64,000 nt of DNA. Source: Escherichia coli. Lineage in GTDB: Bacteria; Pseudomonadota; Gammaproteobacteria; Enterobacterales; Enterobacteriaceae. Both the position numbers and the translations under genes were made by a program. The notes below the pieces were generated by a model that was not told the DNA's origin, did no database searches, and worked only from the letters and a program-made list of their open reading frames with translations. Shown here piece by piece: positions 12,502-34,252 of this stretch (positions are counted from its first letter, which is position 1; every line of letters starts with the position of its first letter). Where the stretch lies: assembly GCF_001677475.2 (NCBI RefSeq), contig NZ_CP015229.1; one strand, 5' to 3'.

Positions 12502-12698
12502 GTTATGAATTTAGCCAAAGCTATGTTTAGTGTATTTTTAATAATCAGACATAGCTTAGGCTATATTACCTCTTCCCTTATTTGTTATTTATTTTAACGT
12601 TTCATTGATATATAAATCTAAATGAAAATCGTTATCAATAAAGCAATGAAATAATATATTCCAACAGTTGTTTATGAGACGACAATAACTCAGTCCGC

Positions 12699-12720
12699 CT
12701 GGCGCCGATTATTCTGGCCG
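12699..12720. repeat. Left terminal inverted repeat of the IS21-family element (ctggcgccgattattctggccg)
   Basis: Hand alignment: 18 of 22 positions match the reverse complement of 15035-15056. Confidence 0.5.
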
Positions 12721-12765
12721 GTTTTGTAACCTGAGTGTCATTTACATGATCCAACAGGAAATGGC

Positions 12766-14265
12766 GTGACGCTCAATACTTCTCAGGTCAGTTACTATAT
12801 GACTCAGCGTAAGAAAGGTATAACTCAGCATATCTCGGCCATGAAGGCTGGTATCTCAGTCCGTTCTGGTCGTCGGATCGAAAAAGGAGAGTGGGCAAAA
12901 AACAGTGTTCGGCACTGGCGCACACGCAAAGATCCTCTGGAAGCTGTGTGGGACAGCATGCTTGTTCCTCTGTTGAAAGAGAGGCCGGCTCTGACACCAA
13001 CAACTCTACTGGAGATGCTACAGGATAAATATCCCGGCCAGTACCCCAACAGCCTTCGAAGAACAATGCAACGGCGGGTTCGCGAATGGAAACTACAGTA
13101 TGGTACAGAGCAGGAGGTCATGTTCCGCCAGCAACATCAGCCCGGCCTGCGAGGCCTGTCGGACTTTACTGAACTGAAAGGTGTAGTTGTCACCATCGCC
13201 GGTAAGTTGTTGGCGCATAAGTTGTATCACTTCCGTCTGGAATGGAGCCACTGGAGCTGGATGCGGGTTGTTCTGGGTGGTGAGAGCTTCTCTGCTCTGG
13301 CTGAAGGCCTGCAGGAAGCCCTCGGACAACTGGGCGGAGTGCCGGTAGAACATAAAACGGACAGCCTGAGGGCAGCATGGAAACAACAGGGCGAAGATGG
13401 ACGCCGCGAGCTGACTGAGCGTTATGCTACTCTCTGTCAGCACTACGGAATGCAGGGCGTACACAATAATGCCGGTCGGGGCCACGAAAATGGCTCGGTT
13501 GAAAGTGCCCACGGACATCTGAAAAGGCGTATCTGTCAGGCGCTGATACTGCGGGGCAGTAACGACTTCAGCACCATAGAAGAATATCAGGCCTTCATCA
13601 CTCAGCAGGTTATGCGGCACAACCGTAACAATCAGGATCTGGTCAAGGAAGAACGTCTTCATCTGAAACCGCTGCCGCTTCGTCGCAGTGCTGACTATGA
13701 TGAGCTGACTGTGAGGGTTAGTCGCAGCAGTACCATCAATGTGAAGCACGTCGTCTACAGCGTACCTTCCCGGCTTGTAGGTCAACTGTTACGGGTCAGG
13801 TTATGGGACGATCGTCTGAGCTGTTACGTTGGCAGCAGCGAGGTCATGAGCTGCCCTCGCGTCAGACCAGAAAAAGGGAAGACGCGGGCCCGTCGTATCG
13901 ACTTCCGACATGTGATCGACAGTCTGGCAAAAAAGCCCGGTGCGTTCTGCCATGCAACGCTGAGAAATGACATCCTGCCGGACGATGAATGGCGGAGGCT
14001 GTGGCGTCGCTTATGTAATCATCTGGAGCCCGATATGGCAGGAAGGCTGATGGTACATGCCCTGAAACTGGCTGCAGGATACGACGATATCTCAGTCGTG
14101 GCAAAAGGTATGGAGCAGATGCTGAATACCCCGGGAAACGTGGATCTGCACCGGCTGATGCGCTTCCTGGGTATAAAAGAAAAGGCGTTGCCGGTAGTCA
14201 ATGTGATACAGCATAACCTGAGCAGTTATGAGCAACTACTGCGTGGCAAGGGAGGTTCGCAGTGA
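12766..14265 (+). CDS. istA: IS21-family transposase IstA
   Basis: 499-aa ORF from GTG at 12766 (alternative in-frame ATG at 12799); N-terminal HTH-like region, large catalytic domain; stop overlaps istB start. Confidence 0.8.
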   Translation: MTLNTSQVSYYMTQRKKGITQHISAMKAGISVRSGRRIEKGEWAKNSVRHWRTRKDPLEAVWDSMLVPLLKERPALTPTTLLEMLQDKYPGQYPNSLRRTMQRRVREWKLQYGTEQEVMFRQQHQPGLRGLSDFTELKGVVVTIAGKLLAHKLYHFRLEWSHWSWMRVVLGGESFSALAEGLQEALGQLGGVPVEHKTDSLRAAWKQQGEDGRRELTERYATLCQHYGMQGVHNNAGRGHENGSVESAHGHLKRRICQALILRGSNDFSTIEEYQAFITQQVMRHNRNNQDLVKEERLHLKPLPLRRSADYDELTVRVSRSSTINVKHVVYSVPSRLVGQLLRVRLWDDRLSCYVGSSEVMSCPRVRPEKGKTRARRIDFRHVIDSLAKKPGAFCHATLRNDILPDDEWRRLWRRLCNHLEPDMAGRLMVHALKLAAGYDDISVVAKGMEQMLNTPGNVDLHRLMRFLGIKEKALPVVNVIQHNLSSYEQLLRGKGGSQ

Positions 14266-15017
14266 GCAATATCCATCACCTTGAACATAGCCTGCGTAAA
14301 CTACGCCTGACACGAGTTGGAGCTGAATGGCACGCTCTGGAAAAACGAGCGCTGGCAGAAGGCTGGACACCATCGCGCTATCTTCTGACGCTATGCAATG
14401 AAGAACTCCTGTGGCGCGAGAGTGAAAAACTGCGTCGTTATAAAAAGGAGGCCCGGTTGCCAGTTGCCAAAACGCTGAGCGAATACGACTTCAGTCAGGT
14501 GCCGGAACTGAATGGAGCTCAGTTCCGGCAACTCTGTGAAACGACAGACTGGGTTGATGCAGGAGAAAACGTTCTGCTGTTCGGAGCCAGCGGGTTGGGG
14601 AAAAGCCATCTGGCGGCAGCGATCGTGGATGGCGTAGTAGGTCAGGGCTACCGGGCCCGGTTCTACAGCGCAGGAGAGCTGTTGCAGGAACTACGTAAAG
14701 CCAGAGCTCAGTTGAAACTGAATGAGCTGCTACTGAAACTGGATCGCTACCGGGTGATAGTGGTGGATGATCTTGGCTATGTCAAACGCGATAGTGCCGA
14801 AACGGGTGTGCTGTTCGAGTTAATAGCGCATCGCTATGAACGTGGGAGCCTGGTGATAACCAGTAACCATCCGTTCAGCATGTGGGGCAGCATCTTCGTG
14901 GATGAGACTATGGCGGTGGCTGCGGCAGACAGGCTGCTCCATCACGGATATATGTTCGAACTGAAAGGGGAAAGCTACAGGAAAAAGACAGCGAAGGCAG
15001 TAACAAGCGCGACTTGA
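14262..15017 (+). CDS. istB: IS21-family helper ATPase IstB
   Basis: 251-aa ORF with Walker A (LLFGASGLGKSHLAAAI) and Walker B-like (VIVVDDLGY) motifs; translationally coupled to istA. Confidence 0.85.
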   Translation: MSNIHHLEHSLRKLRLTRVGAEWHALEKRALAEGWTPSRYLLTLCNEELLWRESEKLRRYKKEARLPVAKTLSEYDFSQVPELNGAQFRQLCETTDWVDAGENVLLFGASGLGKSHLAAAIVDGVVGQGYRARFYSAGELLQELRKARAQLKLNELLLKLDRYRVIVVDDLGYVKRDSAETGVLFELIAHRYERGSLVITSNHPFSMWGSIFVDETMAVAAADRLLHHGYMFELKGESYRKKTAKAVTSAT

Positions 15018-15034
15018 TGTCGCCCTGAAGGGTG

Positions 15035-15056
15035 CGGCCAGTATAGTTGGCGCGAG
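15035..15056. repeat. Right terminal inverted repeat of the IS21-family element
   Basis: Reverse complement ctcgcgccaactatactggccg pairs with 12699-12720 (18/22). Confidence 0.5.
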
Positions 15057-15121
15057 TCGGCAAAACTAGTTGACGTCTAATAGTTGTTTTATATTCTCAA
15101 AATATGTTAAGGTTGCGCCCT

Positions 15122-15346
15122 CATTTGGGGAGTAGCCGATTTCCAGATTCCGGAAATGTACGTGTCAACATACTCGTTGCAAAACGTGGCACGTACGGAC
15201 TGAACACTTTCAGTCAGGCGAGACCATATGCACATCAATCGCTATGCCTGCATGAACGCGAAAACCCGTCGCGGCTTGTTGTTCATGTATGCATGTTTGC
15301 TGGGGGCGATGATGTGTTTTATGGATACCCCGGTCAGGACGTTGTC
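15122..15346 (+). promoter_or_regulatory. mntP 5' leader with predicted yybP-ykoY manganese riboswitch (extent approximate)
   Basis: Long untranslated leader before the mntP ATG beginning with ggggagtagcc near the expected transcript start; the E. coli mntP leader is known to hold an Mn riboswitch; structure not folded here. Confidence 0.5.
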
Positions 15347-15913
15347 ATGAATATCACTGCTACTGTTCTTCTTGCGTTTGGTATGTCGATGGATGCATTT
15401 GCTGCATCAATCGGTAAAGGTGCCACCCTCCATAAACCGAAATTTTCTGAAGCATTGCGAACCGGCCTTATTTTTGGTGCCGTCGAAACCCTGACACCGC
15501 TGATCGGCTGGGGAATGGGCATGTTAGCCAGCCGGTTTGTCCTTGAATGGAATCACTGGATTGCGTTTGTGCTGCTGATATTCCTCGGCGGGCGAATGAT
15601 TATTGAGGGTTTTCGTGGCGCAGATGATGAAGATGAAGAGCCGCGCCGTCGGCACGGTTTCTGGCTACTGGTAACCACCGCGATTGCCACCAGCCTGGAT
15701 GCCATGGCTGTGGGTGTTGGTCTTGCTTTCCTTCAGGTCAACATTATCGCGACCGCATTGGCCATTGGTTGTGCAACCTTGATTATGTCGACATTAGGGA
15801 TGATGGTTGGTCGCTTTATCGGCTCAATTATTGGGAAAAAAGCGGAAATTCTCGGCGGGCTAGTGCTGATCGGCATCGGCGTCCAGATCCTCTGGACGCA
15901 CTTCCACGGTTAA
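15347..15913 (+). CDS. mntP: Manganese efflux pump MntP
   Basis: 188-aa membrane protein [25 protein letters not shown]; ORF-track N-terminal extension (15104) rejected. Confidence 0.85.
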
Positions 15914-16719
15914 TAAGAACGCTGCCAGAGGTGAATATTAAAGTCCGTCTGGCAGTCGAACACTTCTTTTGCTACCAGTGTTTGCCAGACTTCTGGCTTC
16001 GCACGCCAGGCAAACGGCGTCATCTGCAATAATGCGACGGCTTCGTCACCGCGAAGACGCATCGGATAACACAACTCATCACTCTGCTGTAATGTAAAAC
16101 CTTCCAGTTGTTCTGCATGTGGTGCATGAAGATGTACTTCATTGTAAATCAGCCCCTTCAGCTCCATCAAATGTCGCGGTCCCGGCGTGGCAGTAATGAC
16201 CCAACCGCCAGGCTTCACTACTCGCGCTAATTCTTCTGCTTTACACGGCGCGTAAATACGTATTATGGCGTCCATACTGGCATCGGAAAACGGCAAACGG
16301 TGGCTGGAAGCAACACAAAAAGTGACCTGCGGATAGCGTTTCGCCGCCGCTTTTATCGCTACCTTCGAGACATCCAGGCCAAACGTGGTGATTTCGGGCA
16401 GCGCATCGGCAAATGCGTGTGTGTAATACCCTTCACCACAGCCAATATCCAGCACCGCCGTGGCCTTTTCATCAAGCCGTTCCCGCAGTTGGGCGACAAT
16501 TGCATCACGCAGCGGCTGATAATGTCCGGCATCTAAGAATGCGCGGCGTGCTTGCATCATTTCCGCGCTGTCGCCCGGATCACGAGACCGTTTATGCTGA
16601 ACGGGCAGCAGATTGACATACCCTTCTTTCGCCATATCAAACTGATGTCGCTGGGGACAGATATAGCTGTTTTTTTCACGCGAAAGAGGCTGATGGCAAA
16701 GTGGACAGGAAAACGACAT
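15910..16719 (-). CDS. rlmA: 23S rRNA m1G745 methyltransferase RlmA
   Basis: 269-aa ORF with N-terminal Cys4 zinc ribbon (CPLCHQ...CPQRH) and SAM methyltransferase motif DIGCGEGYY. Confidence 0.85.
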
Positions 16720-16804
16720 GACAACTCCGGCAGGATACTAAAGGCCGCAAGTGTAACGCGAATCACGCGGCGGGCAAATATCCGAACGCCAGGAGCGAAG
16801 ATAA

Positions 16805-16840
16805 AGCAAAGTAAAAAGCCTCGCATTCGACGAGGCTTTA
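16805..16840 (-). terminator. Rho-independent terminator after cspC
   Basis: Stem aaagcctcg/cgaggcttt with T-run on minus strand. Confidence 0.55.
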
Positions 16841-16884
16841 TAGCGAGATTGAAGCGTATTCACACTTCAGATCAGTGGATTCGA

Positions 16885-17094
16885 TCAGATAGCTGTTACG
16901 TTAACAGCTGCCGGACCTTTCTGGCCGTCCTGAATTTCGAACTCAACGTTCTGACCTTCAGCCAGAGTTTTGAAGCCATTACCCTGGATAGCGGAGAAGT
17001 GTACGAACACGTCTTTGCTGCCATCAGCCGGAGTAATGAAGCCAAAACCTTTAGACTCGTTGAACCACTTAACCTGACCTTTAATCTTTGCCAT
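16885..17094 (-). CDS. cspC: Cold-shock-domain protein CspC
   Basis: 69-aa [23 protein letters not shown] with RNP motifs. Confidence 0.95.
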
Positions 17095-17106
17095 TTGAAA
17101 AATTCC

Positions 17107-17250
17107 TTAGATTGTTTTCTTCGCCCGCAGGCATAACATAGATAAAACTGACACATTACTGCATGAGGCACCAATATAAGGCTCGGCAGAGAAGCGGTAT
17201 TCAACGTCAACGTGTTTACTCAGGACTTCTTTACTGAAAATGCCACACAT
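17107..17250 (-). CDS. yobF: Small protein YobF (47 aa), co-transcribed with cspC
   Basis: Hand translation of minus strand: [47 protein letters not shown]; absent from ORF track (below 60 aa). Confidence 0.8.
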
Positions 17251-17919
17251 AAACAGAACTGTACCTCGTTTAACCCGAAATCTGTTATCACATACAACGT
17301 TAATTATGGCAAGCCATTTTTAAACATGTCTCGATCAGACGCACAAATCTCGATACGTCTTCCACTTTTTTTGCACACTTATGCAACGGAATACGCGCCG
17401 ATATATCATTGTGCTTAACCTTGCCAGTTCAGGCAGATACTTAAACTGACGTATTTTCTAACATAGTTCAATAAGTTCAGTTGTTCCAGGCCAGTAGGAG
17501 AAGTTATTACATAGTGCGTGCAATATCACATTTTCTGCTATGCAATGAATAAAAAGTTATATCACTTTTTCTCATAAAACAGTCAGTTAACGGCCACCAA
17601 TTACCCCAAAGAGAAGTCAATCCCCAATGGTATTGTAAATTTAAAATAAGAAAAATTGATGAATGCGCAAAAAAATCAAGAGAGAAACGTTTCGCTAATA
17701 AATAATACCACGCTTAATCACAAATCCGATGTAAACATCCTAATAAATTAATGGGCTAAATATCTTTTTCTGATATCTCGTTACGCAAATAAATAATATG
17801 ATAATTATTTGAAGTCAGACCAGAGTTTTAATTTGAAGCAGTTGCACCATGACAGTGCGTATAATCAGGATGAATTGAGTAACCCTTCAACGACGGGGTT
17901 ACTCAAGATTGAGGAAGGA

Positions 17920-18207
17920 TTATCGTTCGGCGACCAGACGAATAATATCTTCGTCTTCAACCGATTTTTGACTCTCAACGGTCTTTTTATCTGCTTTCTC
18001 TGGTTCATTTGCTTCGCACAAACGACGTAACAGTGCATTTTGACGTTTTTGCTGATCCAACAACGCCTCAAGCAGTTCAATCTGTTCGTTAGTCCGTGAA
18101 CTGGCACGATTGATAAAAAACCACAAGATGAGCCCGATAAGAAGAACCACCACCGATACAACCAAAGACGCTATGTTCATCACGCCTGAATTTACAACTT
18201 CGTTCAT
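17920..18207 (-). CDS. yebO: Small membrane protein YebO
   Basis: 95-aa ORF, one N-terminal TM helix then charged coiled region. Confidence 0.8.
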   Translation of the reverse strand: MNEVVNSGVMNIASLVVSVVVLLIGLILWFFINRASSRTNEQIELLEALLDQQKRQNALLRRLCEANEPEKADKKTVESQKSVEDEDIIRLVAER

Positions 18208-18281
18208 TTCACCACCTCTGAGTAGAGGCGCTATTCTACCACTGCTGGAGAGGAAGAAAATCTAGTGCTGAAAAAATGATA

Positions 18282-18425
18282 TCACCACGGGATAAACTGG
18301 TTAATGGCACAAATTCCGCTGAAAAATTGTACATCCTGATCGCACATCATGTTGAATACCTGCGCCCAAAGCAGCAAGCAAGCCAACACCACGACAACCA
18401 GAACGACCCATCGAAACTTTTTCAC
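18282..18425 (-). CDS. mgrB: PhoQ-inhibiting small membrane protein MgrB (47 aa)
   Basis: Hand translation of minus strand from GTG: [47 protein letters not shown]; absent from ORF track. Confidence 0.85.
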
Positions 18426-18583
18426 TCCAATCTCCGTTTCACCTACCTTATGTCATTAAACTAGCATGCGTTAGTTAAACAGCGCCTAACTATGTCGATA
18501 TTCGTGCTTTTTCAGAATGAGTCGCTTGCTTCAGCGCATATTGCCGCTACGATTAAGCGAACATAAAAAGAGAAGAGGTTGTA

Positions 18584-18823
18584 ATGCGATTCATCATTCG
18601 CACAGTTATGCTGATAGCACTGGTATGGATAGGATTATTACTCAGCGGATATGGCGTTTTGATTGGAAGCAAAGAGAATGCCGCGGGATTAGGTTTGCAA
18701 TGTACCTATCTGACCGCCAGAGGCACCAGCACGGTACAATACCTGCACACTAAAAGTGGTTTTCTGGGGATAACAGATTGCCCGTTGTTACGTAAAAGCA
18801 ATATTGTGGTCGATAATGGTTAA
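18584..18823 (+). CDS. yobH: Small protein YobH
   Basis: 79-aa ORF MRFIIRTVMLIALVWIGLLLSGYG with signal/TM N-terminus. Confidence 0.75.
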   Translation: MRFIIRTVMLIALVWIGLLLSGYGVLIGSKENAAGLGLQCTYLTARGTSTVQYLHTKSGFLGITDCPLLRKSNIVVDNG

Positions 18824-18920
18824 GGGTAATAAATAACCAGATTCTCACTCATGAGTAAAATATTCTTATCGCAAGTGCGTTTAATATAACGCCACCTTCA
18901 ACTTTATTTTTCTCATGCTA

Positions 18921-18959
18921 AATAAAGAACCTGTCTGTTTGATATTCAGACAGGTTCTT
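18921..18959 (-). terminator. Terminator hairpin after kdgR
   Basis: 13-bp perfect stem aagaacctgtctg/cagacaggttctt immediately after the kdgR stop. Confidence 0.5.
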
Positions 18960-18966
18960 ACTCTCA

Positions 18967-19758
18967 TCAGAACGGATAGTCGTGATAACCCATTTGGGCA
19001 GAAATTTTGCGCGCTGCGGTATGCAACATTGCGACATATTCCTGTAAACGCTCTTCAGAGAAACGCAACGTCGGGAAGGAGATGCTAAGACCGGCAATGA
19101 CCACGCCAAAGCGATCAAATACCGGAACCGCAATGCATCGCAGCCCTTCTTCCTGCTCTTCGTTATCTTCGCCATACCCCTGCTCACGCACCTGGTCCAG
19201 AACGGGTAATAACGCTTCTGTACTGGTGATGGTCCGCTCGGTACTGCATTTATACTCCACGCCCTCAAGAATTTGCTTCACTTCATCGCGATCGCGCCAT
19301 GCCAGCAGTACCTTACCAATCGCGGTGCTGTACAGCGGATTACGACGCCCAATCCGTGAATACATGCGCAAATTGTACATAGAGTCAATTTTATGGATGT
19401 AAACAATACTGTCTTCGTCCAGTGCGCCGAGGTGGATAGTTTCTTTGGTCAGGCGGGAGATCTCACGCATCTGGATATCTGCGCTACGAATTAAATCGAC
19501 GTTTTGTAACGCGCGAGCGCCCAGTTCAAACAATTTCAGGGTCAGGGAATATTTCTCCGACTCCCCTTCCTGCGCCACATAACCTAAGGTTTTCATGGTC
19601 TGTAAAAAGCGATAAACGGTGCTTTTTGACATCATGACGCGCTGCGACAGCTCGGTTATCCCTATTTCGCGCTCTTCACCCAGCGCCTGCAAAATGCCAA
19701 AAACTTTTAGCACGGAAGATACAGAATCAGGCTGTTTATCCAGATCTGCGTTAGCCAT
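18967..19758 (-). CDS. kdgR: IclR-family repressor KdgR
   Basis: 263-aa ORF with N-terminal HTH (SVLKVFGILQALGEE) and IclR effector domain. Confidence 0.85.
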   Translation of the reverse strand: MANADLDKQPDSVSSVLKVFGILQALGEEREIGITELSQRVMMSKSTVYRFLQTMKTLGYVAQEGESEKYSLTLKLFELGARALQNVDLIRSADIQMREISRLTKETIHLGALDEDSIVYIHKIDSMYNLRMYSRIGRRNPLYSTAIGKVLLAWRDRDEVKQILEGVEYKCSTERTITSTEALLPVLDQVREQGYGEDNEEQEEGLRCIAVPVFDRFGVVIAGLSISFPTLRFSEERLQEYVAMLHTAARKISAQMGYHDYPF

Positions 19759-19934
19759 TTATCACCTCATTGCGAGTGTTTTATAAAAATCAGAACTGTT
19801 TTTTATTATAATTTCGCACCAGGGTGGTCGCAATCCATCTTTTGCCGGTTAGTTACAATTCTGCGACATCCACCGTGAATATCAGTGCTAGAATCATACC
19901 CCTGTTGATTATTCACCAAAGATATAAAATTCCT

Positions 19935-21308
19935 ATGCCAAAAGTTCAGGCCGACGGCCTGCCGTTGCCCCAGCGATACGGTGCGATATTAACCATTGTG
20001 ATTGGTATTTCGATGGCTGTCCTTGACGGCGCAATCGCCAACGTCGCCTTGCCAACAATCGCCACGGACCTTCATGCCACGCCGGCCAGTTCCATCTGGG
20101 TAGTGAACGCCTATCAAATCGCCATTGTCATCTCCCTGCTCTCGTTTTCGTTTCTGGGCGATATGTTTGGCTATCGACGTATTTATAAATGCGGTCTGGT
20201 CGTTTTTCTGTTGTCTTCACTGTTCTGCGCCCTTTCTGATTCGCTGCAAATGCTCACCCTTGCGCGCGTCATACAAGGTTTCGGCGGTGCAGCGTTGATG
20301 AGCGTTAATACCGCACTTATCCGCCTGATCTATCCACAACGTTTTCTGGGTAGAGGGATGGGCATAAACTCGTTTATTGTTGCCGTTTCTTCTGCTGCCG
20401 GGCCGACAATTGCTGCAGCAATCCTCTCCATCGCATCCTGGAAATGGTTATTTTTAATCAACGTACCGTTAGGTATTATCGCCCTGCTTCTGGCCATGCG
20501 TTTTCTGCCACCCAATGGTTCTCGCGCCAGTAAACCCCGTTTCGACCTGCCCAGCGCCGTGATGAACGCGTTAACCTTCGGCCTGCTTATCACTGCGTTG
20601 AGTGGTTTCGCTCAGGGGCAATCGCTGACGTTAATTGCTGCGGAACTGGTGGTAATGGTTGTAGTTGGTATTTTCTTTATTCGCCGCCAGCTTTCTCTTC
20701 CCGTACCGCTGCTACCGGTGGATTTACTGCGTATCCCGCTGTTTTCACTTTCTATTTGCACATCTGTTTGCTCTTTCTGCGCACAAATGCTGGCAATGGT
20801 TTCCCTGCCCTTTTACCTGCAAACCGTGCTCGGGCGTAGTGAAGTCGAAACAGGTTTACTTCTGACACCGTGGCCGTTAGCAACGATGGTGATGGCTCCG
20901 CTGGCAGGCTATTTGATTGAACGCGTACATGCAGGATTGCTGGGTGCTTTAGGGTTGTTCATCATGGCTGCGGGGCTTTTTTCCCTGGTTCTGCTGCCCG
21001 CGTCACCTGCGGATATCAATATTATCTGGCCGATGATCTTATGTGGTGCTGGATTTGGCTTATTCCAGTCACCCAATAACCACACCATTATTACCTCAGC
21101 TCCTCGCGAACGTAGCGGTGGAGCCAGTGGCATGTTAGGAACGGCCCGTCTACTGGGTCAGAGTAGCGGCGCGGCGCTGGTGGCGCTGATGCTAAATCAG
21201 TTTGGAGATAATGGTACGCACGTCTCGCTGATGGCTGCGGCTATTCTGGCAGTGATTGCTGCCTGTGTCAGTGGTTTACGTATCACTCAGCCACGATCCA
21301 GGGCATAA
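19935..21308 (+). CDS. yebQ: MFS transporter YebQ
   Basis: ORF 19824..21308 trimmed to MPKVQADGLPLPQRYG (457 aa); about 14 TM segments. Confidence 0.8.
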   Translation: MPKVQADGLPLPQRYGAILTIVIGISMAVLDGAIANVALPTIATDLHATPASSIWVVNAYQIAIVISLLSFSFLGDMFGYRRIYKCGLVVFLLSSLFCALSDSLQMLTLARVIQGFGGAALMSVNTALIRLIYPQRFLGRGMGINSFIVAVSSAAGPTIAAAILSIASWKWLFLINVPLGIIALLLAMRFLPPNGSRASKPRFDLPSAVMNALTFGLLITALSGFAQGQSLTLIAAELVVMVVVGIFFIRRQLSLPVPLLPVDLLRIPLFSLSICTSVCSFCAQMLAMVSLPFYLQTVLGRSEVETGLLLTPWPLATMVMAPLAGYLIERVHAGLLGALGLFIMAAGLFSLVLLPASPADINIIWPMILCGAGFGLFQSPNNHTIITSAPRERSGGASGMLGTARLLGQSSGAALVALMLNQFGDNGTHVSLMAAAILAVIAACVSGLRITQPRSRA

Positions 21309-21339
21309 AAAAAGCGCGTCGATCAGGACGCGCTTTTTA
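21307..21339. terminator. Bidirectional terminator between convergent yebQ and htpX
   Basis: Stem aaagcgcgtc/gacgcgcttt flanked by A-run and T-run. Confidence 0.6.
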
Positions 21340-21353
21340 GTATTTACTTCATA

Positions 21354-22235
21354 TTACTTCAGATATTCACCCGTACGCAGAGCTTCAATACGTTTATCCA
21401 GCGGCGGGTGAGTCATGAACAACTCACTGAGCGATTTCGACTTACCGTTAATGCAGAAAGCCATCATGCTGGTTGCTTCTTGCGGTTCATAGCTGGTTTT
21501 CAGGCGCTGCAGCGCGGCAATCATTTTCTCGCGACCAACCAGTTTTGCCGAACCGGCATCAGCATGGAATTCACGATGACGCGAGAACCACATGGTGATA
21601 ATGCTCGCCAGAATACCAAACACCAGTTCCAGAACCGTTGCAACCGCAAAGTAGATCAGCGGGTTGCCGTTACTCTCTTCACCTTCATCACGATTTCCGC
21701 CCATAAAACCCGCGGCAAGCTGCGCCAGAATACGGGAAATAAAGATAACGAAGGTGTTCACCACGCCCTGAATCAGCGTCATGGTGACCATATCACCATT
21801 GGCGATGTGGCTGATTTCATGAGCAATTACCGCCTCGGCTTCATCCGGGCTCATGTTCTGCAGCAAACCGGTGCTGACAGCAACCAGAGAGGCATCACGG
21901 CGCGCACCGGTTGCAAAAGCGTTGATGTCCGGCGCATGGTAGATAGCCACTTGCGGCATAGCGATCCCCGCCTGACGAGCCTGGGTTGCTACAGTATTGA
22001 CCAGCCAACGTTCCCTTTCGTTACGCGGTTGCTCGATCACTTCCCCGCCAACAGATCGTAATGCCATCCATTTGGACATCAGAAGCGAAACGAAGGAACC
22101 ACCAAAACCGAACAGCAAGGCCATGATCATCAGCCCCTGAACGCTGCTCGACTGTATCCCTGTCAGGCTCAGTACCAGCCCGAAAACGACCATTACGGCC
22201 AGGTTCGTTAGCAGGAAGAGCGCGATTCGCATCAT
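21354..22235 (-). CDS. htpX: Heat-shock membrane zinc protease HtpX
   Basis: 293-aa ORF with HEISH zinc-binding motif. Confidence 0.9.
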
Positions 22236-22390
22236 AATTTTCTTTTTACCTCAGTTTAACAAAACGCAATATGCGATACCCACATCGTATGGGTTACGCG
22301 ACTATTTTCAAGTCTGGATAGTGCGTAAGTCACCAGAAAGACACAACTTTACATTTTGTAGCATCTGATTTACGGCATCTTGCCGCTGTT

Positions 22391-22421
22391 AAAAAATCAG
22401 GCACAATTTCTTGTGCCTGAT
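22391..22421 (-). terminator. Terminator hairpin after prc
   Basis: Stem atcaggcacaa/ttgtgcctgat with T-run on minus strand. Confidence 0.5.
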
Positions 22422-22426
22422 TGATA

Positions 22427-24475
22427 TTACTTGACGGGAGCGGGTTGTTCCGCGGGTCTGGCTTTTTCAAGCTTCGCCAGATCGAGTGCGATATTCACCG
22501 TCTCATCCAGATAAGGATCCGGCTCCTGGTAATCTTTCGGTAGATCATCCAGTTTCTTCAACTCCGGTTTACCTTCGCGCTTAAAGCGTTCGTTCAAACG
22601 CGCCAGACGCGTCGCATCATCTTCATTATTCTCTTTCTCACGCACAGCGTAATTCAGAGAAACGATATTGCGCTTGTCCTTCATAGCGTTGAAGCGCGCG
22701 ATATCCTTCATGATGTTCTGGAACTCTGGATCTTTCGCGATACGCGCATTATGTTCCTTCAGCAGCTCCGGTCCAAAGGCCGTCAAATCTCCCGATTTCA
22801 CATAGGTCGCGGCATCGATGCTATCCCACGGCAGCGCGTTATCTTCGAATTTCTCACCGGTTTCCGTTTCTTCATTACCCGTCGGCATGATGATGTCTGG
22901 CGTTACGCCTTTACGTTGCGTACTGCCGCCGTTAACGCGATAGAATTTCTGGATCGTGTACTGCACAGATCCCAGCGCTGGCCATTCAGGACGTAACATC
23001 TGATCGTAGATACGGTTCAATGAACGGTATTGCTGAACGGTGCCTTTACCAAACGTCGGTTCACCCACAACCAGCGCACGACCGTAATCCTGCATTGCCG
23101 CGGCAAAGATTTCTGAAGCCGAAGCACTGAAACGGTCAACCAGTACCACCAGCGGGCCTTTATAGAAGACCTGTCCGTCGGTATCGCTGTCTTCACGAAC
23201 TTTACCGTTGTTATCACGGACCTGAACAATCGGGCCGGATGGAATAAACAGACCGGAGAGCGATACCGCTTCGGTCAGCGCCCCACCACCATTGCTACGC
23301 AGGTCGATGATGACGCTGCTGACATTCTGTTTTTCCAGTTTCTGCAGTTGCACTTTGACATCGTCTGTCAACCCCACATAGAAGCCCGGAATATCCAGCA
23401 CGCCGACTTTCTCTTTACCGACGGTCTTCACCGACATTTTAACCGCGCGATCTTCGAGACGAATACGTTCACGGGTCAACGTTACAGTACGGGTCTTGGT
23501 CCCTTTACCAGCGGGTAAAATTTCCAGACGAACTTTACTGCCCTTCGGCCCTTTAATTAAGGCAACCACATCATCAAGACGCCAGCCAATCACGTCAACC
23601 ATCGGCTTGCCTGTTTGACCAACACCGACAATTTTATCACCAACGCTGATAGCTTTACTCTTCGCTGCCGGACCACCTGCCACCATCGAATTGATAACGG
23701 TGTAGTCATCATCCATTTGCAGAACTGCGCCAATACCTTCCAGCGACAAACTCATTTCAGTGTTGAACTGTTCGGTATTACGCGGGGAAAGATAGTTGGT
23801 ATGCGGGTCGATTTCACGCGCAAACGCCGTCATTGCCAGCGAGAAAACATCTTCGCTGTTGGTTTGCGCCAGACGACGAATGGCAAATTTGTAGCGGCGA
23901 GTCAGGGTTTCACGAATTTCTTTATCCGTTTTTCCTGCCAGCTTCAGGCTTAACTCGTCGAATTTGACTTTACTGTCCCACAGCGCGTTCAACTCAGCCT
24001 CGTTTTTCGGCCATGGCGCTTTACTGCGGTCAAGGTTATAAGTGTCGTTGCCGGTAAAATCCATCGGCTTTTCCAGTACCGACAAAGCGTACTGGTAACG
24101 CTCAAAACGGCGCTTTTGCGCCAAATTGTAGAGATCGTAGAAAACGTCGAGTTTTCCTGAACGTAGTTCATCGCCTAACTCGGTTTTCTTTTTCGCGAAC
24201 TGTTCAACATCGCTTGCCAGCAGCACGTTGTGGCTGTAATCGAGCAGATTCAGATAGCGGTCAAAGATTTTGGCCGAAAATGCCTGATCGAGGTCGAACT
24301 GGCGATAATGAGAACGGGTGAAGCGCGACGTTACGCGCTCACTCACCGTCGCATGCTGCGTCTCTTCCTTTAATACCGGAATTTGATCAGCACGCGTGAT
24401 ATCTTCTACAGCGAAGGTCTGGCCTGCTATTGCAAGCAGGCCAGCTAACGCGGTAAGCCTAAAAAACATGTTCAT
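22427..24475 (-). CDS. prc: Tail-specific periplasmic protease Prc (Tsp)
   Basis: ORF 22427..24523 trimmed to MNMFFRLTALAGLLAIAGQTFA (682 aa); PDZ and S41 peptidase domains. Confidence 0.9.
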   Translation of the reverse strand: MNMFFRLTALAGLLAIAGQTFAVEDITRADQIPVLKEETQHATVSERVTSRFTRSHYRQFDLDQAFSAKIFDRYLNLLDYSHNVLLASDVEQFAKKKTELGDELRSGKLDVFYDLYNLAQKRRFERYQYALSVLEKPMDFTGNDTYNLDRSKAPWPKNEAELNALWDSKVKFDELSLKLAGKTDKEIRETLTRRYKFAIRRLAQTNSEDVFSLAMTAFAREIDPHTNYLSPRNTEQFNTEMSLSLEGIGAVLQMDDDYTVINSMVAGGPAAKSKAISVGDKIVGVGQTGKPMVDVIGWRLDDVVALIKGPKGSKVRLEILPAGKGTKTRTVTLTRERIRLEDRAVKMSVKTVGKEKVGVLDIPGFYVGLTDDVKVQLQKLEKQNVSSVIIDLRSNGGGALTEAVSLSGLFIPSGPIVQVRDNNGKVREDSDTDGQVFYKGPLVVLVDRFSASASEIFAAAMQDYGRALVVGEPTFGKGTVQQYRSLNRIYDQMLRPEWPALGSVQYTIQKFYRVNGGSTQRKGVTPDIIMPTGNEETETGEKFEDNALPWDSIDAATYVKSGDLTAFGPELLKEHNARIAKDPEFQNIMKDIARFNAMKDKRNIVSLNYAVREKENNEDDATRLARLNERFKREGKPELKKLDDLPKDYQEPDPYLDETVNIALDLAKLEKARPAEQPAPVK

Positions 24476-24494
24476 GCCTGGCCCGGCCTCCGTT

Positions 24495-25193
24495 TCAGAA
24501 CACCAGGTGTTCTGCGCGCACAATCAAAGACATACCCGAATTCAGCTGGACGCGGACGCCGTCTTTGGTGATTTCTAATACGGTGGCATCCATCGCGTTT
24601 TGACCCGCTTTCACCTTCAGGGCTTGTCCGACAGTCAGAGCTGAAATGTCAGAAACCGGGGTGTGCTGTTCTTCGCGAGGTGCTTTTACTGTTTTTGGCG
24701 CTTTCTCTACCGGCTTTTGCGCACGAGGTTTACGTTCAGCGCCTTCTTTGCGGCGTGGCGTGGTCGGACGTGGCTTGCGTTCGCGGCGCGGTGCGTCTTC
24801 TTTCTCACCAGCAGCTGCGGCAGCTTCGCGTTTTTTCGCTTGCTGTTCAGCACGCTGTGCCTGAACACGCGCTTTCGCTTCTTCAAGCTGCTTGCGAGCA
24901 TGCTCTACATGTTGCTCGTCCAGCTCACCGCATGGGTTGCCGTCAAGATCGACACGCGTTGCGCCGGGTTTAACACCGTAAAGGTAACGCCAGCTCGAAG
25001 TGTAGAGACGTAAAGCGGATCGCAATTGCGTTTTGCTCAGGTTCATTTCCCCGGCAACACGATCGACCAAATCCTGAAAAATACCGATTTTCAGCGGACG
25101 CGCTTCACCTTCCGCACTGAAACAGTGGGGAAAACGTTCGGCCAGAAACGCGATTACTTCTTTACTGCTATTCAACTTAGGTTGATTTTCCAT
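24495..25193 (-). CDS. proQ: RNA chaperone ProQ
   Basis: 232-aa [28 protein letters not shown]; FinO-like N domain, basic linker, C-terminal Tudor-like domain. Confidence 0.9.
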
Positions 25194-25289
25194 GAAATTT
25201 CCTGATTACAACGGACGTAGCCAACAAGCGCAGGCATGAACAGGCGTCATTATAATGACGCTATCAGTAAATGCTACGTTATCCGTTGA

Positions 25290-25787
25290 TTATCCTGCGA
25301 CGCTCGCAAAGAATTTTTTGTAATCCGTCGTTGCAAGCACTTTTTCAAGCTGTGCTACAAGCTGACGTAAGCCTTGCTCGTCCTCGTCTGTAAAGCGACC
25401 GAAGACGGTACTATCGATGTCGAGAACACCAATAATCTGATTTTTCACCACCAGCGGCAGAACAATTTCAGAATTACTCGCCGCATCACAGGCAATATGC
25501 CCGTCAAACGCGTGCACATCCTCGATACGCTGCACTTGATTGCGGGCAACCGCTGTGCCGCACACCCCGCGCCCGACGGGTATCCGAACACAGGCAATTT
25601 TGCCCTGAAATGGTCCGAGCACCAGTGTATCGTCCTCAAGCAAATAAAAACCTGCCCAGTTTACGTCAGTGAGACGCTCATATAACAACGCACTGGTGTT
25701 CGCAAGCGTTGCCAGAAAACTGGTTTCTCCTGCCATCAGCGCGTTAAAGTCGCGATTTAAATCCGCGTAAAATTCTGTTTTGTTCAT
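25290..25787 (-). CDS. msrC: Free methionine-(R)-sulfoxide reductase MsrC (GAF domain)
   Basis: ORF 25290..25841 trimmed to MNKTEFYADL (165 aa). Confidence 0.8.
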   Translation of the reverse strand: MNKTEFYADLNRDFNALMAGETSFLATLANTSALLYERLTDVNWAGFYLLEDDTLVLGPFQGKIACVRIPVGRGVCGTAVARNQVQRIEDVHAFDGHIACDAASNSEIVLPLVVKNQIIGVLDIDSTVFGRFTDEDEQGLRQLVAQLEKVLATTDYKKFFASVAG

Positions 25788-25916
25788 TATATAATCACTT
25801 GGTTGTCTTACCAGGAACTGCCAGCCTATTAAAATAAGCATTAAATGCGTTAATGCTCAAGATCATTCCCATCATGGGTTAAGATTAATGTTAATTCTTA
25901 TTACATTTGGCACGTC

Positions 25917-27200
25917 ATGGCTCTTAACACACCACAAATTACGCCGACAAAAAAGATAACAGTGAGGGCAATCGGCGAGGAACTGCCGCGTGGTGATTAC
26001 CAACGTTGCCCGCAATGTGACATGCTGTTTAGCCTGCCCGAGATAAATTCTCATCAGAGTGCCTATTGTCCGCGCTGTCAGGCAAAAATTCGCGACGGGC
26101 GCGACTGGTCGCTGACGCGCCTGGCGGCAATGGCGTTCGCTATGCTGTTGTTGATGCCGTTTGCATGGGGCGAACCGCTGTTGCATATCTGGCTGTTAGG
26201 CATTCGTATTGACGCCAACGTCATGCAAGGCATCTGGCAAATGACCAAACAGGGCGATGCGATAACGGGATCAATGGTCTTTTTTTGCGTTATTGGTGCC
26301 CCCCTCATTCTGGTGACCTCCATAGCTTATTTATGGTTTGGTAACCGACTGGGAATGAATCTACGTCCGGTACTGCTGATGCTTGAGCGACTGAAAGAGT
26401 GGGTAATGCTCGATATCTACCTGGTCGGCATTGGCGTTGCTTCTATAAAGGTACAGGATTATGCCCATATCCAGGCGGGTGTCGGCTTGTTCTCTTTTGT
26501 GGCGTTGGTGATTTTAACGACGGTGACGTTGTCACATCTCAATGTCGAAGAACTGTGGGAGCGATTTTATCCACAGCGCCCCGCTACGCGTAGAGACGAG
26601 AAACTCCGTGTCTGTCTTGGGTGCCATTTTACCGGCTATCCTGATCAGCGTGGTCGCTGCCCGCGTTGCCATATTCCGCTACGCCTGCGTCGCCGTCATA
26701 GTCTGCAAAAATGCTGGGCGGCGCTGTTAGCGTCAATCGTTTTGTTGTTACCTGCCAACCTGTTGCCTATTTCTATCATTTATCTGAACGGAGGACGGCA
26801 GGAAGATACAATTCTTTCCGGAATTATGTCGCTGGCGAGTAGCAACATTGCCGTTGCGGGAATCGTGTTTATCGCCAGTATTCTGGTACCGTTTACTAAA
26901 GTGATCGTCATGTTCACTTTACTGTTGAGCATTCATTTTAAATGCCAGCAAGGTTTACGCACACGCATTCTGTTACTGCGGATGGTGACCTGGATTGGTC
27001 GCTGGTCGATGCTCGACCTGTTTGTCATATCTTTAACCATGTCGCTGATTAATCGCGATCAGATCCTCGCTTTTACTATGGGACCGGCTGCGTTTTATTT
27101 CGGCGCAGCGGTAATTTTGACTATTCTTGCTGTGGAATGGCTGGACAGCCGCTTACTTTGGGATGCACATGAGTCAGGAAACGCCCGCTTCGACGACTGA
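25917..27200 (+). CDS. yebS: Paraquat-inducible-A-like membrane protein YebS (LetA)
   Basis: 427-aa ORF with two CxxC zinc-ribbon pairs and two PqiA-like membrane modules. Confidence 0.8.
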
Positions 27201-29802
27201 AGCGCAGATTAAAAATAAACGCCGTATCTCACCTTTCTGGCTGCTGCCGTTCATCGCGCTAATGATTGCTGGTTGGCTGATTTGGGACAGTTATCAGGAC
27301 CGGGGTAATACCGTCACCATCGACTTTATGTCGGCGGATGGTATTGTCCCGGGCCGCACCCCTGTTCGTTATCAGGGCGTTGAAGTCGGAACTGTGCAGG
27401 ATATCAGCCTGAGCGACGATCTTCGTAAGATTGAAGTCAAGGTCAGCATCAAGTCTGATATGAAAGATGCGCTGCGCGAAGAGACACAGTTCTGGCTGGT
27501 GACGCCAAAGGCCTCGTTGGCAGGTGTCTCCGGGCTGGATGCCCTCGTCGGTGGTAACTATATCGGCATGATGCCAGGTAAAGGTAAAGAGCAGGATCAC
27601 TTTGTCGCACTCGATACCCAACCGAAGTATCGGCTGGATAATGGCGATCTGATGATCCACCTGCAAGCCCCCGATCTCGGTTCACTGAACAGTGGTTCAT
27701 TGGTCTATTTCCGTAAGATCCCGGTGGGTAAAGTCTACGACTATGCCATCAATCCCAATAAGCAAGGCGTGGTGATTGATGTCCTGATCGAGCGGCGTTT
27801 TACCGATCTGGTGAAAAAAGGTAGCCGTTTCTGGAACGTTTCCGGCGTTGATGCCAACGTCAGTATCAGTGGCGCGAAGGTGAAACTGGAAAGTCTGGCG
27901 GCACTGGTTAACGGTGCGATTGCCTTCGATTCACCTGAAGAGTCGAAACCTGCCGAGGCGGAAGATACCTTTGGTCTGTATGAAGATCTCGCCCACAGCC
28001 AGCGTGGCGTAATAATAAAACTGGAACTGCCGAGTGGGGCCGGATTAACCGCCGACTCGACGCCGTTAATGTATCAGGGGCTGGAAGTCGGACAGCTGAC
28101 TAAACTGGATTTAAATCCTGGTGGTAAAGTCACTGGGGAAATGACCGTTGATCCCAGCGTCGTCACCCTGCTTCGTGAAAATACCCGCATCGAATTACGC
28201 AACCCGAAATTATCCCTTAGCGATGCCAATCTCAGCGCCCTGCTGACCGGAAAAACCTTTGAGTTGGTGCCCGGCGATGGCGAGCCACGCAAAGAGTTCG
28301 TTGTTGTGCCAGGCGAAAAAGCACTGCTGCATGAACCTGATGTTCTGACACTGACCCTGACAGCACCGGAAAGTTACGGTATTGATGCTGGTCAGCCGCT
28401 CATTCTTCACGGCGTGCAGGTAGGCCAGGTTATTGATCGTAAACTCACCAGTAAAGGCGTCACCTTTACCGTCGCCATCGAGCCTCAGCATCGAGAACTG
28501 GTAAAAGGCGATAGCAAATTTGTCGTCAACAGCCGTGTCGACGTGAAGGTGGGGCTGGATGGCGTTGAGTTTCTCGGAGCCAGCGCCTCAGAATGGATTA
28601 ATGGCGGGATACGTATTCTGCCGGGCGATAAAGGCGAGATGAAAGCCAGCTATCCACTGTATGCCAATCTGGAAAAAGCGCTGGAGAACAGCCTTAGCGA
28701 TTTACCCACCACAACCGTAAGTTTGAGTGCAGAGACGCTGCCGGATGTGCAGGCGGGCTCGGTAGTGCTGTACCGTAAATTTGAAGTTGGTGAAGTTATT
28801 ACCGTGCGTCCGCGAGCTAACGCGTTTGATATCGATCTGCATATTAAGCCGGAGTATCGCAACCTTCTGACCAGCAACAGCGTGTTCTGGGCAGAAGGTG
28901 GGGCGAAAGTTCAGCTAAATGGTAGTGGTCTGACTGTACAGGCATCCCCGCTCTCCAGAGCATTAAAGGGGGCTATTAGCTTCGATAACCTCAGCGGTGC
29001 CAGCGCCAGTCAGCGTAAAGGCGACAAGCGTATTCTGTATGCTTCCGAAACAGCGGCCCGTGCGGTTGGCGGGCAAATTACGCTTCACGCTTTCGATGCC
29101 GGAAAACTGGCGGTCGGGATGCCAATTCGCTATCTCGGTATTGATATCGGGCAAATCCAGACGCTGGATCTGATTACCGCGCGCAATGAAGTACAGGCAA
29201 AGGCGGTGCTCTATCCGGAATATGTCCAGACCTTTGCTCGCGGTGGTACGCGCTTCTCAGTGGTCACACCGCAAATTTCGGCAGCTGGCGTTGAGCATCT
29301 AGATACTATCCTCCAGCCGTATATCAACGTCGAACCAGGACGGGGCAATCCTCGTCGCGACTTTGAATTACAAGAGGCCACCATTACTGATTCGCGTTAC
29401 CTGGATGGCTTAAGCATTATTGTTGAAGCGCCGGAAGCCGGTTCGTTAGGTATCGGTACACCTGTGCTGTTCCGTGGTCTGGAAGTCGGTACGGTTACCG
29501 GAATGACGCTGGGGACATTGTCAGATCGCGTGATGATTGCGATGCGCATCAGTAAACGCTATCAACACCTGGTGCGTAACAATTCCGTCTTCTGGTTGGC
29601 ATCGGGTTACAGTCTGGACTTTGGTCTGACGGGCGGCGTAGTGAAAACCGGCACCTTTAACCAGTTTATCCGTGGCGGCATCGCCTTCGCCACGCCTCCA
29701 GGTACGCCACTGGCACCGAAAGCCCAGGAAGGCAAGCACTTCCTGTTGCAGGAAAGTGAACCGAAAGAGTGGCGTGAATGGGGTACTGCGCTTCCCAAAT
29801 AA
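27169..29802 (+). CDS. yebT: Multi-MCE-domain lipophilic envelope-spanning protein YebT (LetB)
   Basis: ORF 27127..29802 trimmed to [13 protein letters not shown] (877 aa); N-terminal TM then tandem MCE repeats; overlaps yebS 3' end. Confidence 0.85.
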
Positions 29803-29875
29803 TGCCCACTGCTCCGGCGTGCCTGCGCCGGAGCGTTTATGCTAAACTGCGCGCCTGTTTTTTTGCCAGTGGTAT

Positions 29876-31321
29876 ATGCTCGTGGCCCAACATACCGTTT
29901 ATTTCCCGGACGCCTTTCTGACACAAATGCGCGAAGCAATGCCTTCGACGCTCTCTTTTGATGATTTTCTTGCCGCCTGTCAGCGCCCGTTGCGCCGCAG
30001 CATTCGCGTTAATACGCTGAAAATCTCCGTTGCTGATTTCCTGCAATTAACCGCTCCTTATGGCTGGACGCTTACGCCAATTCCGTGGTGTGAAGAAGGT
30101 TTCTGGATTGAACGCGACGATGAAGATGCATTGCCATTGGGTAGTACCGCCGAGCATTTAAGCGGCCTGTTTTATATTCAGGAAGCCAGTTCAATGTTGC
30201 CCGTTGCCGCCTTGTTTGCTGACGGTAATGCACCACAGCGGGTGATGGATGTCGCTGCTGCGCCAGGCTCCAAAACGACGCAAATTGCCGCGCGGATGAA
30301 TAACGAAGGGGCTATCCTTGCCAATGAGTTTTCCGCCAGTCGGGTAAAAGTGTTACATGCCAATATCAGCCGCTGTGGTATCAGTAATGTTGCGCTCACA
30401 CATTTTGATGGCCGCGTGTTTGGTGCGGCATTGCCAGAAATGTTCGATGCCATTTTGCTGGACGCTCCCTGCTCCGGCGAAGGCGTGGTGCGTAAAGATC
30501 CCGATGCGCTAAAAAACTGGTCACCAGAAAGCAATCAGGAAATCGCAGCTACCCAACGGGAGCTTATCGACAGCGCCTTTCATGCATTACGCCCTGGCGG
30601 TACGCTGGTTTACTCGACCTGTACCTTAAACCAGGAAGAAAACGAAGCCGTTTGCCGGTGGCTGAAAGAGACTTACCCCGACGCAGTAGAGTTTTTACCG
30701 CTTGGTGATCTCTTCCCTGGTGCAAACAAGGCGCTGACCGAGGAAGGCTTTTTGCATGTTTTCCCACAAATTTACGACTGCGAAGGCTTCTTCGTTGCTC
30801 GTCTGCGTAAAACTCAGGCGATTCCCGCCTTACCCGCCCCAAAATACAAAGTGGGCAATTTCCCGTTCAGCCCGGTGAAAGATCGCGAAGCTGGACAAAT
30901 TCGTCAGGCGGCTGCAGGTGTTGGCTTAAACTGGGATGAAAACCTGCGCCTCTGGCAGCGTGACAAAGAACTGTGGTTGTTCCCGGTGGGCATTGAAGCC
31001 CTGATCGGTAAAGTCCGATTTTCTCGCCTGGGGATTAAACTTGCCGAAATGCACAACAAAGGTTATCGCTGGCAGCATGAAGCGGTTATTGCCCTTGCCT
31101 CCCCCGACAATGTGAACGCTTTTGAACTGACACCGCAGGAAGCGGAAGAGTGGTATCGCGGGCGCGATGTTTACCCGCAAGCCGCGCCAGTGGCGGATGA
31201 TGTATTGGTTACTTTCCAACATCAGCCGATTGGTTTAGCCAAACGGATTGGTTCGCGACTGAAAAACAGCTACCCGCGTGAACTGGTGCGCGACGGGAAA
31301 CTTTTTACCGGTAACGCCTGA
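29876..31321 (+). CDS. rsmF: 16S rRNA m5C1407 methyltransferase RsmF
   Basis: 481-aa ORF (start possibly GTG at 29882); SAM motif [10 protein letters not shown] and catalytic Cys motifs. Confidence 0.85.
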
Positions 31322-31438
31322 CAGCGCACAAAAAAAGCGCACTTTTTGACTGGCACATTCGGCTGCCTCAACTAGGCTGATAAATGGTGCGATCGGACTG
31401 GTCGTACCACAACCGGCAGCTAAATGGAGAGCACGAAG

Positions 31439-31675
31439 ATGAAAACCAGTGTGCGCATAGGCGCTTTTGAAATCGACGACGGCGAATTACACGGCGAATC
31501 GCCGGGTGATCGAACGTTAACCATTCCTTGTAAATCAGACCCCGATTTATGTATGCAACTGGATGCCTGGGATGCCGAAACCAGTATCCCTGCCCTGCTA
31601 AATGGCGAACACTCTGTCCTTTACCGTACCCGTTACGATCAACAATCTGATGCCTGGATTATGCGTCTTGCCTGA
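31439..31675 (+). CDS. yebV: Small protein YebV
   Basis: ORF 31424..31675 trimmed to MKTSVRIGAFEIDDGELHGE (78 aa). Confidence 0.7.
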   Translation: MKTSVRIGAFEIDDGELHGESPGDRTLTIPCKSDPDLCMQLDAWDAETSIPALLNGEHSVLYRTRYDQQSDAWIMRLA

Positions 31676-31779
31676 TCCAAAAAGAACCCGTCAGCATGGC
31701 GGGTTATTTGTCCTGGTTATTCCCCCGTTGTAAAATCTCTCCTAAACTTAACGGTACGGCACCACACTTCGGGGATGAA

Positions 31780-32631: not shown

Positions 32632-32719
32632 TATTTTCCTCCCGCGCTAAAGATCACATAATCTTAACAAGAATGTTAAAAACGCTGGACTCAGACAGTA
32701 GAGTGTGTGTTATGGTTGA

Positions 32720-32993: not shown

Positions 32994-33022
32994 ATTGGAA
33001 ATCAAAAGGCTATTTTAGGTAA

Positions 33023-33364: not shown

Positions 33365-33376
33365 TTTCGTAATCCA

Positions 33377-34249: not shown

Positions 34250-34252
34250 GAT

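Follow-up and report, generated by a model that had tools for sequence, protein, structure and literature searches.

The DNA analysed here is a 64,000-nucleotide stretch of an Escherichia coli chromosome (assembly GCF_001677475.2, contig NZ_CP015229.1), referred to below as the window, in which the manganese exporter gene mntP is preceded by an insertion sequence (IS). The gene order, manY-manZ-yobD-[insertion]-mntP-rlmA-cspC, identifies an E. coli chromosomal segment. The interruption falls between the yobD stop codon at 12501 and the mntP start codon, for which the open reading frame (ORF) confirms the ATG at 15347 given in the original prediction, a first reading of the sequence that had proposed a rewiring of mntP control by the IS. 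Between the two genes lies a two-gene element of 53.3% GC with the attributes of the IS21 family: a gene for an IstA DDE transposase followed by one for an IstB AAA+ helper (the two overlap by 4 nt), bounding terminal inverted repeats (TIRs) and a short target duplication. The exact IstA protein is present in 145 blocks of public assemblies, and in related loci the neighbouring gene of identical length matches the Pfam domain IstB_IS21, with Mu-transpos_C_2 also matching there. A megablast search of 5,426 complete E. coli genomes returned hundreds of copies of the element at 98-99.8% identity, and RefSeq labels the matching copies 'IS21-like element ISEc10 family', with istA and istB annotated. 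Identity to the annotated ISEc10 copies, which occur on both chromosomes and plasmids of E. coli, is 98.2-99.8% over 2,410 bp, where >95% DNA identity was taken to denote the same IS and the comparison was with RefSeq-annotated copies rather than with the ISfinder reference. By every feature that can be tested in the sequence, the element is ISEc10; this copy is complete and probably still mobile. In another genome, NZ_AP021946.1 (locus L003, 1-2710), an ISEc10 with a frameshifted istB adjoins another IS21-like istB with no target duplication, an arrangement that suggests nested or rearranged IS21-family elements.

Insertion site and rarity of the allele

The ends of the element were mapped by comparing this copy with ten others, taken from two RefSeq chromosomes and from eight contigs with an identical IstA. 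All 11 copies start with TATGAGACG and finish with CGTCTAATA in differing flanks, and the length is 2,410 bp throughout, save for one copy of 2,409 bp. This comparison places the right end of the IS at 15082, which is 26 bp further right than the position near 15056 originally proposed, and shortens the gap between IS and mntP leader from the ~65 bp then expected to 38 bp (15083-15120), such that the IS abuts the predicted -35 region of the mntP promoter (PmntP). The element is flanked by a perfect direct repeat, GTTGTT, and a duplication of the same length, 6 bp, is found in seven of the eight other copies that have any duplication. The tips common to the 11 copies place the IS at 12673-15082 and exclude a longer duplication of 7-8 bp, either GTTGTTT or AGTTGTT. 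On the left of the insertion the chromosome reads TCCAACA, which is similar to the right tip of the IS, TCTAATA (window positions 12660-12673 and 15076-15089), with the effect that the BLAST match to the chromosome over-extends by 7 bp into the IS (to 15076). Nothing similar stands beside nine other copies, and we judge this resemblance to be a coincidence.

When 2,416 bp, comprising the IS and one copy of the duplication, are removed, the K-12 yobD-mntP spacer is restored with an indel-free join. The few point differences from K-12 that are left in the rebuilt spacer are all found in natural strains too; the spacer is 98.6% identical to that of the K-12-derived strains J53 and EC600 and 99.8% identical to that of two RefSeq genomes, which are its best matches. 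The indel-free reconstruction of the empty site, together with an expectation of 0 chance matches in the window for the left-end 27-mer of the IS, argues that the insertion is not a chance pattern, and the perfect duplication and exact reconstruction also exclude an assembly artefact or chimera. The event is a clean, simple transposition into the AT-rich DNA that immediately precedes the mntP promoter. It is probably recent, because the target duplication and TIRs are perfectly preserved and other copies match the IS at 99.8% identity.

The junction k-mers of the allele are GACGTCTAATAGTTGTTTTATATTC and CCAACAGTTGTTTATGAGACGAC. The IS/mntP junction was found by BLAST in 0 of the 5,426 complete E. 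coli genomes, and the exact k-mers in none of the metagenome contigs and none of the GTDB representative genomes searched. ISEc10 is likewise absent from beside mntP in the neighbourhoods of 615 contigs with an identical MntP and 21 contigs with an identical IstA, and we found no report in the literature of any IS upstream of mntP. The host chromosome (window 15083-35000, 20 kb) is at best 99.3% identical to a complete RefSeq E. coli genome (KV7, from a pig) and otherwise 98.8%, values which imply that the source lineage is poorly sampled among them; the allele could be fixed in that lineage. The yobD-mntP spacer is unbroken in 5,419 of 5,422 genomes. One of the three genomes with a broken spacer is E. 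coli B1172 (NZ_CP120549.1; locus L025, 3334-3708), in which a natural deletion has taken out yobD, the MntR and Fur sites, PmntP and ~17 nt from the start of the riboswitch aptamer, and has left a truncated manZ fused to the mntP leader near +18.

The mntP control region on either side of ISEc10

The coordinates of the control elements and of the IS are collected in Table 1. MntR sites were predicted with the motif ATAGC-N4-GCTAT, calibrated on the upstream regions of K-12 mntH and mntS, in both of which it occurs as an exact palindrome. The exact palindrome has a single occurrence in the 64-kb window, at the second of two predicted MntR boxes between yobD and the IS. For Fur, the two overlapping 19-mers in the same tract score 14/19 and 13/19 against the consensus. 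A consensus scan for Fur is weak when taken alone (25 sites in the window score at least 13/19), and the site is accepted only because it coincides with the strong two-site Fur cluster that Chen et al. (2007, Table 4; PMC2189734) place at -300 relative to the start codon of yebN (= mntP), which maps to ~12630 in the window. On the promoter side of the IS, between 15083 and 15346, motif scans found no Fur-like site and only one MntR-like match, with two mismatches and inside the leader. The predicted MntR boxes, the Fur cluster and the 25%-GC tract all lie to the left of the IS, each of them 2,416 bp farther from the promoter than in the empty site. This bears out the original proposal that the upstream MntR and Fur operators are cut off by the insertion; in the opposite arrangement all of the regulatory sites would lie within 15057-15346, where none comparable is found. 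According to a passage in a review (PMC8632737, which cites Dambach 2015), mntP is repressed by H-NS as long as manganese is non-toxic, and this repression is relieved by MntR and manganese-loaded Fur, which bind the promoter region.

The transcription start of mntP was set at 15121 by aligning the leader with the published aptamer numbering (A11 = 15131, A48 = 15168, A50 = 15170), in which A11 lies in loop L1 (GGGGAGUAG) and loop L3 (ACAUACU) begins with A48 (PMC12153347; NAR 2025). The leader start near 15122 that had been expected was therefore 1 nt off. The K-12 leader is reportedly 225 nt long, which gives the same +1 after allowing for a 1-nt insertion here. Relative to this start the last base of the IS is at -39, and the right copy of the target duplication (-38 to -33) overlaps a weak hexamer that we predict to be the native -35, with an extended -10 predicted downstream. 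The promoter core would have survived because the staggered cut duplicated a target that contains or adjoins the -35. The native region from -40 to -60, which is 81% AT, is replaced in the IS allele by the IS tip, and the 38 bp left between the IS and the leader are 34% GC. The earlier expectation of a probably intact core promoter stands for the predicted -35 and -10, which are kept, but is only just true, since everything from -40 to -60 is now IS DNA.

The manganese riboswitch is intact, as originally proposed. Its match to the yybP-ykoY model RF00080 scores 41.9 bits, below the gathering cut-off of 45; this is a normal score here, because the experimentally validated K-12 mntP riboswitch (locus L001, 3462-3558) scores 41.6. 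The 45-bit cut-off is too strict for the E. coli mntP riboswitch, which a default Rfam scan leaves unmarked. The aptamer differs from that of K-12 by one substitution, and the loops of its metal-sensing core are both kept, L1 at 15127-15135 and L3 at 15168-15174. The encoded MntP sequence is, in its exact form, very common in public assemblies. When the mntP leader alone is placed behind the constitutive T7A1 promoter, manganese induces expression 9- to 16-fold through the riboswitch and Rho-dependent termination, and most untranslated leader transcripts are ended by Rho (PMC11647493).

The IS may also contribute to initiation directly. An outward-facing -35-like hexamer in the right TIR, TTGACG, lies upstream of a chromosomal TATTCT, and the two would make a plausible hybrid promoter with a predicted start near 15104, ~17 nt upstream of the native +1, which agrees with the consensus at 9 of 12 positions. 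The promoter scan does not find this TTGACG/TATTCT site in the K-12 empty site, and the 17-nt right terminus that includes TTGACG matches in all of the copies compared with at most two mismatches. In IS21 itself, the right TIR holds a -35 that makes a strong promoter once joined to a -10, and single-copy IS21 promoters are weak (PMC10122671). The original suggestion that the IS end might supply an outward -35 is upheld in so far as the two hexamers are present at a 16-bp spacing; the match is at the level of consensus and does not rise above shuffled sequence. Weak read-through from istAB is also possible, in that a scan of the + strand from the istB stop codon to the leader found no terminator-like site, and Rho would limit such transcripts. 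In the minimum free energy structure given by RNAfold for a leader extended 17 nt upstream, 15111-15120 (native -10 to -1) pairs with 15128-15137, taking up the L1 loop GGGGAGUAGCC. If this model is correct, the aptamer might be disabled in any transcript begun ahead of the native +1.

Table 1. Features of the yobD-mntP interval in the window, in order of position. Numbers in brackets are relative to the mntP transcription start.
Feature	Position	Strand	Basis
Native upstream regulatory tract of mntP (yobD stop to insertion point), 171 bp, 24.6% GC	12502-12672	+	alignment to K-12 spacer; GC count
Predicted MntR box 1, TTAGC-CAAA-GCTAT, 1 mismatch; centre -187.5 native, -2603.5 now	12511-12524	.	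motif scan; within inverted repeat
Predicted MntR box 2, ATAGC-TTAG-GCTAT, exact; centre -147.5 native, -2563.5 now	12551-12564	.	motif scan
Predicted Fur site cluster, two overlapping Fur-like 19-mers; ~-75 (-87 to -63) native, ~-2491 now	12618-12642	.	consensus scan and published cluster
Target-site duplication GTTGTT, left copy	12667-12672	.	perfect 6-bp repeat
ISEc10 (IS21 family), complete, 2,410 bp	12673-15082	+	98-99.8% identity to RefSeq ISEc10 copies; ends from 11 copies
Left TIR	12673-12720	+	inverted repeat, 48 nt, 71% complementary
istA transposase, 499 aa, intact	12766-14265	+	ORF; annotated istA in matching copies
istB helper ATPase, 251 aa, intact	14262-15017	+	ORF
Right TIR	15035-15082	+	partner arm, 48 nt, 71% complementary
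Outward -35-like TTGACG in right TIR, 7 bp from IS tip	15070-15075 (-51 to -46)	+	promoter scan
Target-site duplication GTTGTT, right copy	15083-15088 (-38 to -33)	.	perfect 6-bp repeat
Predicted native -35 of PmntP, TTGTTT, 18-bp spacer	15084-15089 (-37 to -32)	+	transcription start position and sequence
Candidate hybrid -10, TATTCT, chromosomal, 16-bp spacer from TTGACG	15092-15097	+	consensus match only
Predicted extended -10 of PmntP, TGtTAAGGT	15105-15113 (-16 to -8)	+	sequence relative to transcription start
yybP-ykoY manganese riboswitch aptamer, intact	15119-15215	+	RF00080, 41.9 bits, E=5e-10
mntP 5' leader, 226 nt (K-12 1 nt shorter)	15121-15346	+	+1 from aptamer numbering; alignment to K-12
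mntP coding sequence, 188 aa	15347-15913	+	protein identical to K-12 MntP

Elsewhere in the window, the Rfam cspA thermoregulator model hits the cspC leader and gene region (16810-17270, - strand) with 135.7 bits, against a gathering score of 78, and the overlapping antisense small RNAs SraC/RyeA (+ strand, 175 bits) and SdsR/RyeB (- strand, 114 bits) are present at 32758-32902, as expected for E. coli.

Proposed consequences for manganese control of mntP

The reading that we prefer, with rather more confidence than doubt, is that initiation at PmntP has been uncoupled from MntR, Fur and H-NS, so that control is left to the riboswitch and Rho, with a blunted induction by manganese and with export kept. 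Following the insertion of ISEc10, MntR and Fur would no longer govern initiation at PmntP. The promoter would probably be freed from H-NS silencing as well, the AT-rich tract now being 2.4 kb of 53%-GC DNA away; such a release would be expected because MntR and Fur are reported to counteract H-NS and because the tract to the left of the IS is separated from the promoter. Initiation would then be roughly constitutive, from the native core and possibly also from the hybrid promoter formed by the IS hexamer TTGACG and the flanking TATTCT. Manganese control would fall to the leader, where the riboswitch and Rho-dependent termination by themselves produce a response of ~10-fold, and the net effect would be a narrower range of manganese induction with no loss of MntP export. 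Any phenotype would probably be mild. The original prediction had envisaged a manganese-sensitivity phenotype; this is not the likeliest outcome, since the leader responds 9- to 16-fold by itself and since removal of the AT-rich upstream tract could de-repress the promoter instead of weakening it.

Several considerations weigh against this reading. The -35 and -10 of PmntP are assigned from the sequence, the MntR positions come from motif comparison, and the H-NS mechanism is taken from a single sentence of the review cited above. The region that includes the hybrid promoter contains 4 promoter-like sites compared with 2.8 +/- 1.6 in shuffled sequences, which is no enrichment, and it is for this reason that the hybrid promoter is treated throughout as a candidate. 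The DNA replaced between -40 and -60 is a possible UP element, given its AT content, and its loss could lower basal activity. In the one measured case of ISEc10 near a promoter, that of afa/dr in sequence type 131 (ST131), activity was left unchanged or was reduced (PMC8764528). H-NS could bridge across the IS, or could nucleate on the 34%-GC stretch that remains, and the promoter beside the right TIR might be blocked by IstA bound there (PMC10122671).

The likeliest of the alternatives, although we regard it as improbable, is a net loss of function, in which PmntP is weak without MntR, Fur and UP-like DNA, too little MntP is made under manganese excess and the strain becomes manganese sensitive, as mntP mutants and riboswitch-deletion mutants are (PMC11647493). 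Every predicted activator site has been displaced, but MntR and Fur are described in the relevant passage of the review as H-NS anti-silencers and not as classical activators, and the removal of the tract may end the need for them. Similarly, the substitution of IS DNA at -40 to -60, and the precedent of the afa promoter region in which ISEc10 cut reporter activity (PMC8764528), are to be set against an extended -10 (TGn) that would make the core less reliant on upstream contacts, and against a candidate hybrid promoter that would add initiation capacity. The induction obtained from the leader behind a constitutive promoter also speaks against this outcome.

A gain of function driven by the IS is a shade less probable again. 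Here the hybrid promoter or read-through from istAB would dominate, giving high constitutive mntP transcription that was possibly selected in a manganese-rich niche. The candidate hybrid promoter is exclusive to the IS allele, the right TIR of the IS21 family is built to donate a -35 (PMC10122671), and a fusion promoter formed by IS5 at fucAO provides a precedent (PMC11894529); however, the site here agrees with the consensus at a chance level, and the promoters of single-copy IS21 are weak. Read-through would be favoured by the lack of a terminator-like site on the + strand from the end of istB as far as the leader, but Rho ends most untranslated leader transcripts, and those extended at the 5' end are predicted to hide L1 and may not switch on. 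Overproduction of MntP is moreover toxic (PMC11647493), and the occurrence of the allele nowhere else in our searches argues against positive selection and spread.

We give little credence to the insertion being a neutral passenger, recent and effectively silent, with the riboswitch and Rho dominating so that nothing measurable changes. The preservation of its ends and duplication and its identity to other copies do mark the event as recent, the insertion has spared the core promoter, leader and ORF, the allele is confined to this one sequence in the searches, and H-NS-bound AT-rich DNA, whose bound regions are transposition hotspots, is a general sink for transposons (PMC11335895). In wild-type cells, however, manganese raises mntP mRNA ~15-fold, a rise whose initiation component is credited to MntR (PMC11647493), and the near-universal integrity of the yobD-mntP spacer suggests that insertions there are rarely tolerated or rarely occur. 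Just as improbable is an adaptive switch, in which ISEc10 detaches PmntP from an H-NS-silenced, MntR/Fur-gated upstream region and donates a -35, and this bgl-like activation leaves mntP constitutively transcribed under riboswitch-only control, selected in a manganese-rich or iron-poor niche, with H-NS-directed transposon capture explaining the site.

Relation to known insertions

The element at mntP shares with ISEc10 its imperfect TIRs of ~48 bp and its 6-bp duplication, and it resembles IS21 in the outward -35-like hexamer at its right end. Its tips, 5'-TATGAG...CTAATA-3', differ from the terminal CA of IS5376 (PMC10122671), and its insertion site beside mntP is absent from all other sequences searched. 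The same element has been found in a regulatory region upstream of the afa/dr promoter, where its effect on transcription was measured (PMC8764528); there the IS lies ~440 bp upstream of the start codon, whereas at mntP it ends at -39 and isolates the predicted metal-regulator sites.

Insertion of an IS upstream of bgl relieves silencing by H-NS (PMC9678765). The anatomy of the two loci is alike: at bgl, IS1 or IS5 in AT-rich DNA separates upstream H-NS-binding DNA from the promoter, and at mntP a 171-bp tract lies beyond an IS at -39 from a promoter that is reportedly repressed by H-NS. The resemblance is one of anatomy. The bgl operon is cryptic and its IS alleles are selected on beta-glucosides, whereas mntP is a gene with normal, inducible expression. 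A downstream H-NS site takes part in the silencing loop of bgl as well. We know of no such site at mntP.

In the case of fucAO, IS5 contributes a -35-like hexamer from its terminus to a -10-like hexamer in the flank (PMC11894529), as would ISEc10 at mntP with its 16-bp spacing. The hybrid promoter at mntP is at present a prediction, and with an intact native promoter 17 nt downstream it would not be needed. All of the elements of the native K-12 mntP control region are present here, in near-identical sequence, the difference being that a 2.4-kb element now separates the protein-binding sites from the promoter and riboswitch.

Mutations in which an IS enters the AT-rich DNA upstream of a promoter form a class that is already known, and this example, from one sequence, brings no new mechanism; it is a rare but ordinary natural regulatory mutation. 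If the proposed uncoupling holds, it would nevertheless be a natural separation-of-function allele, in which the MntR/Fur/H-NS layer of mntP control is unplugged and the riboswitch/Rho layer is untouched. A comparison of the allele with an excised derivative would then apportion the share of each layer in manganese tolerance in the context of a wild chromosome, and would also test whether MntR and Fur do no more than counteract silencing by H-NS.

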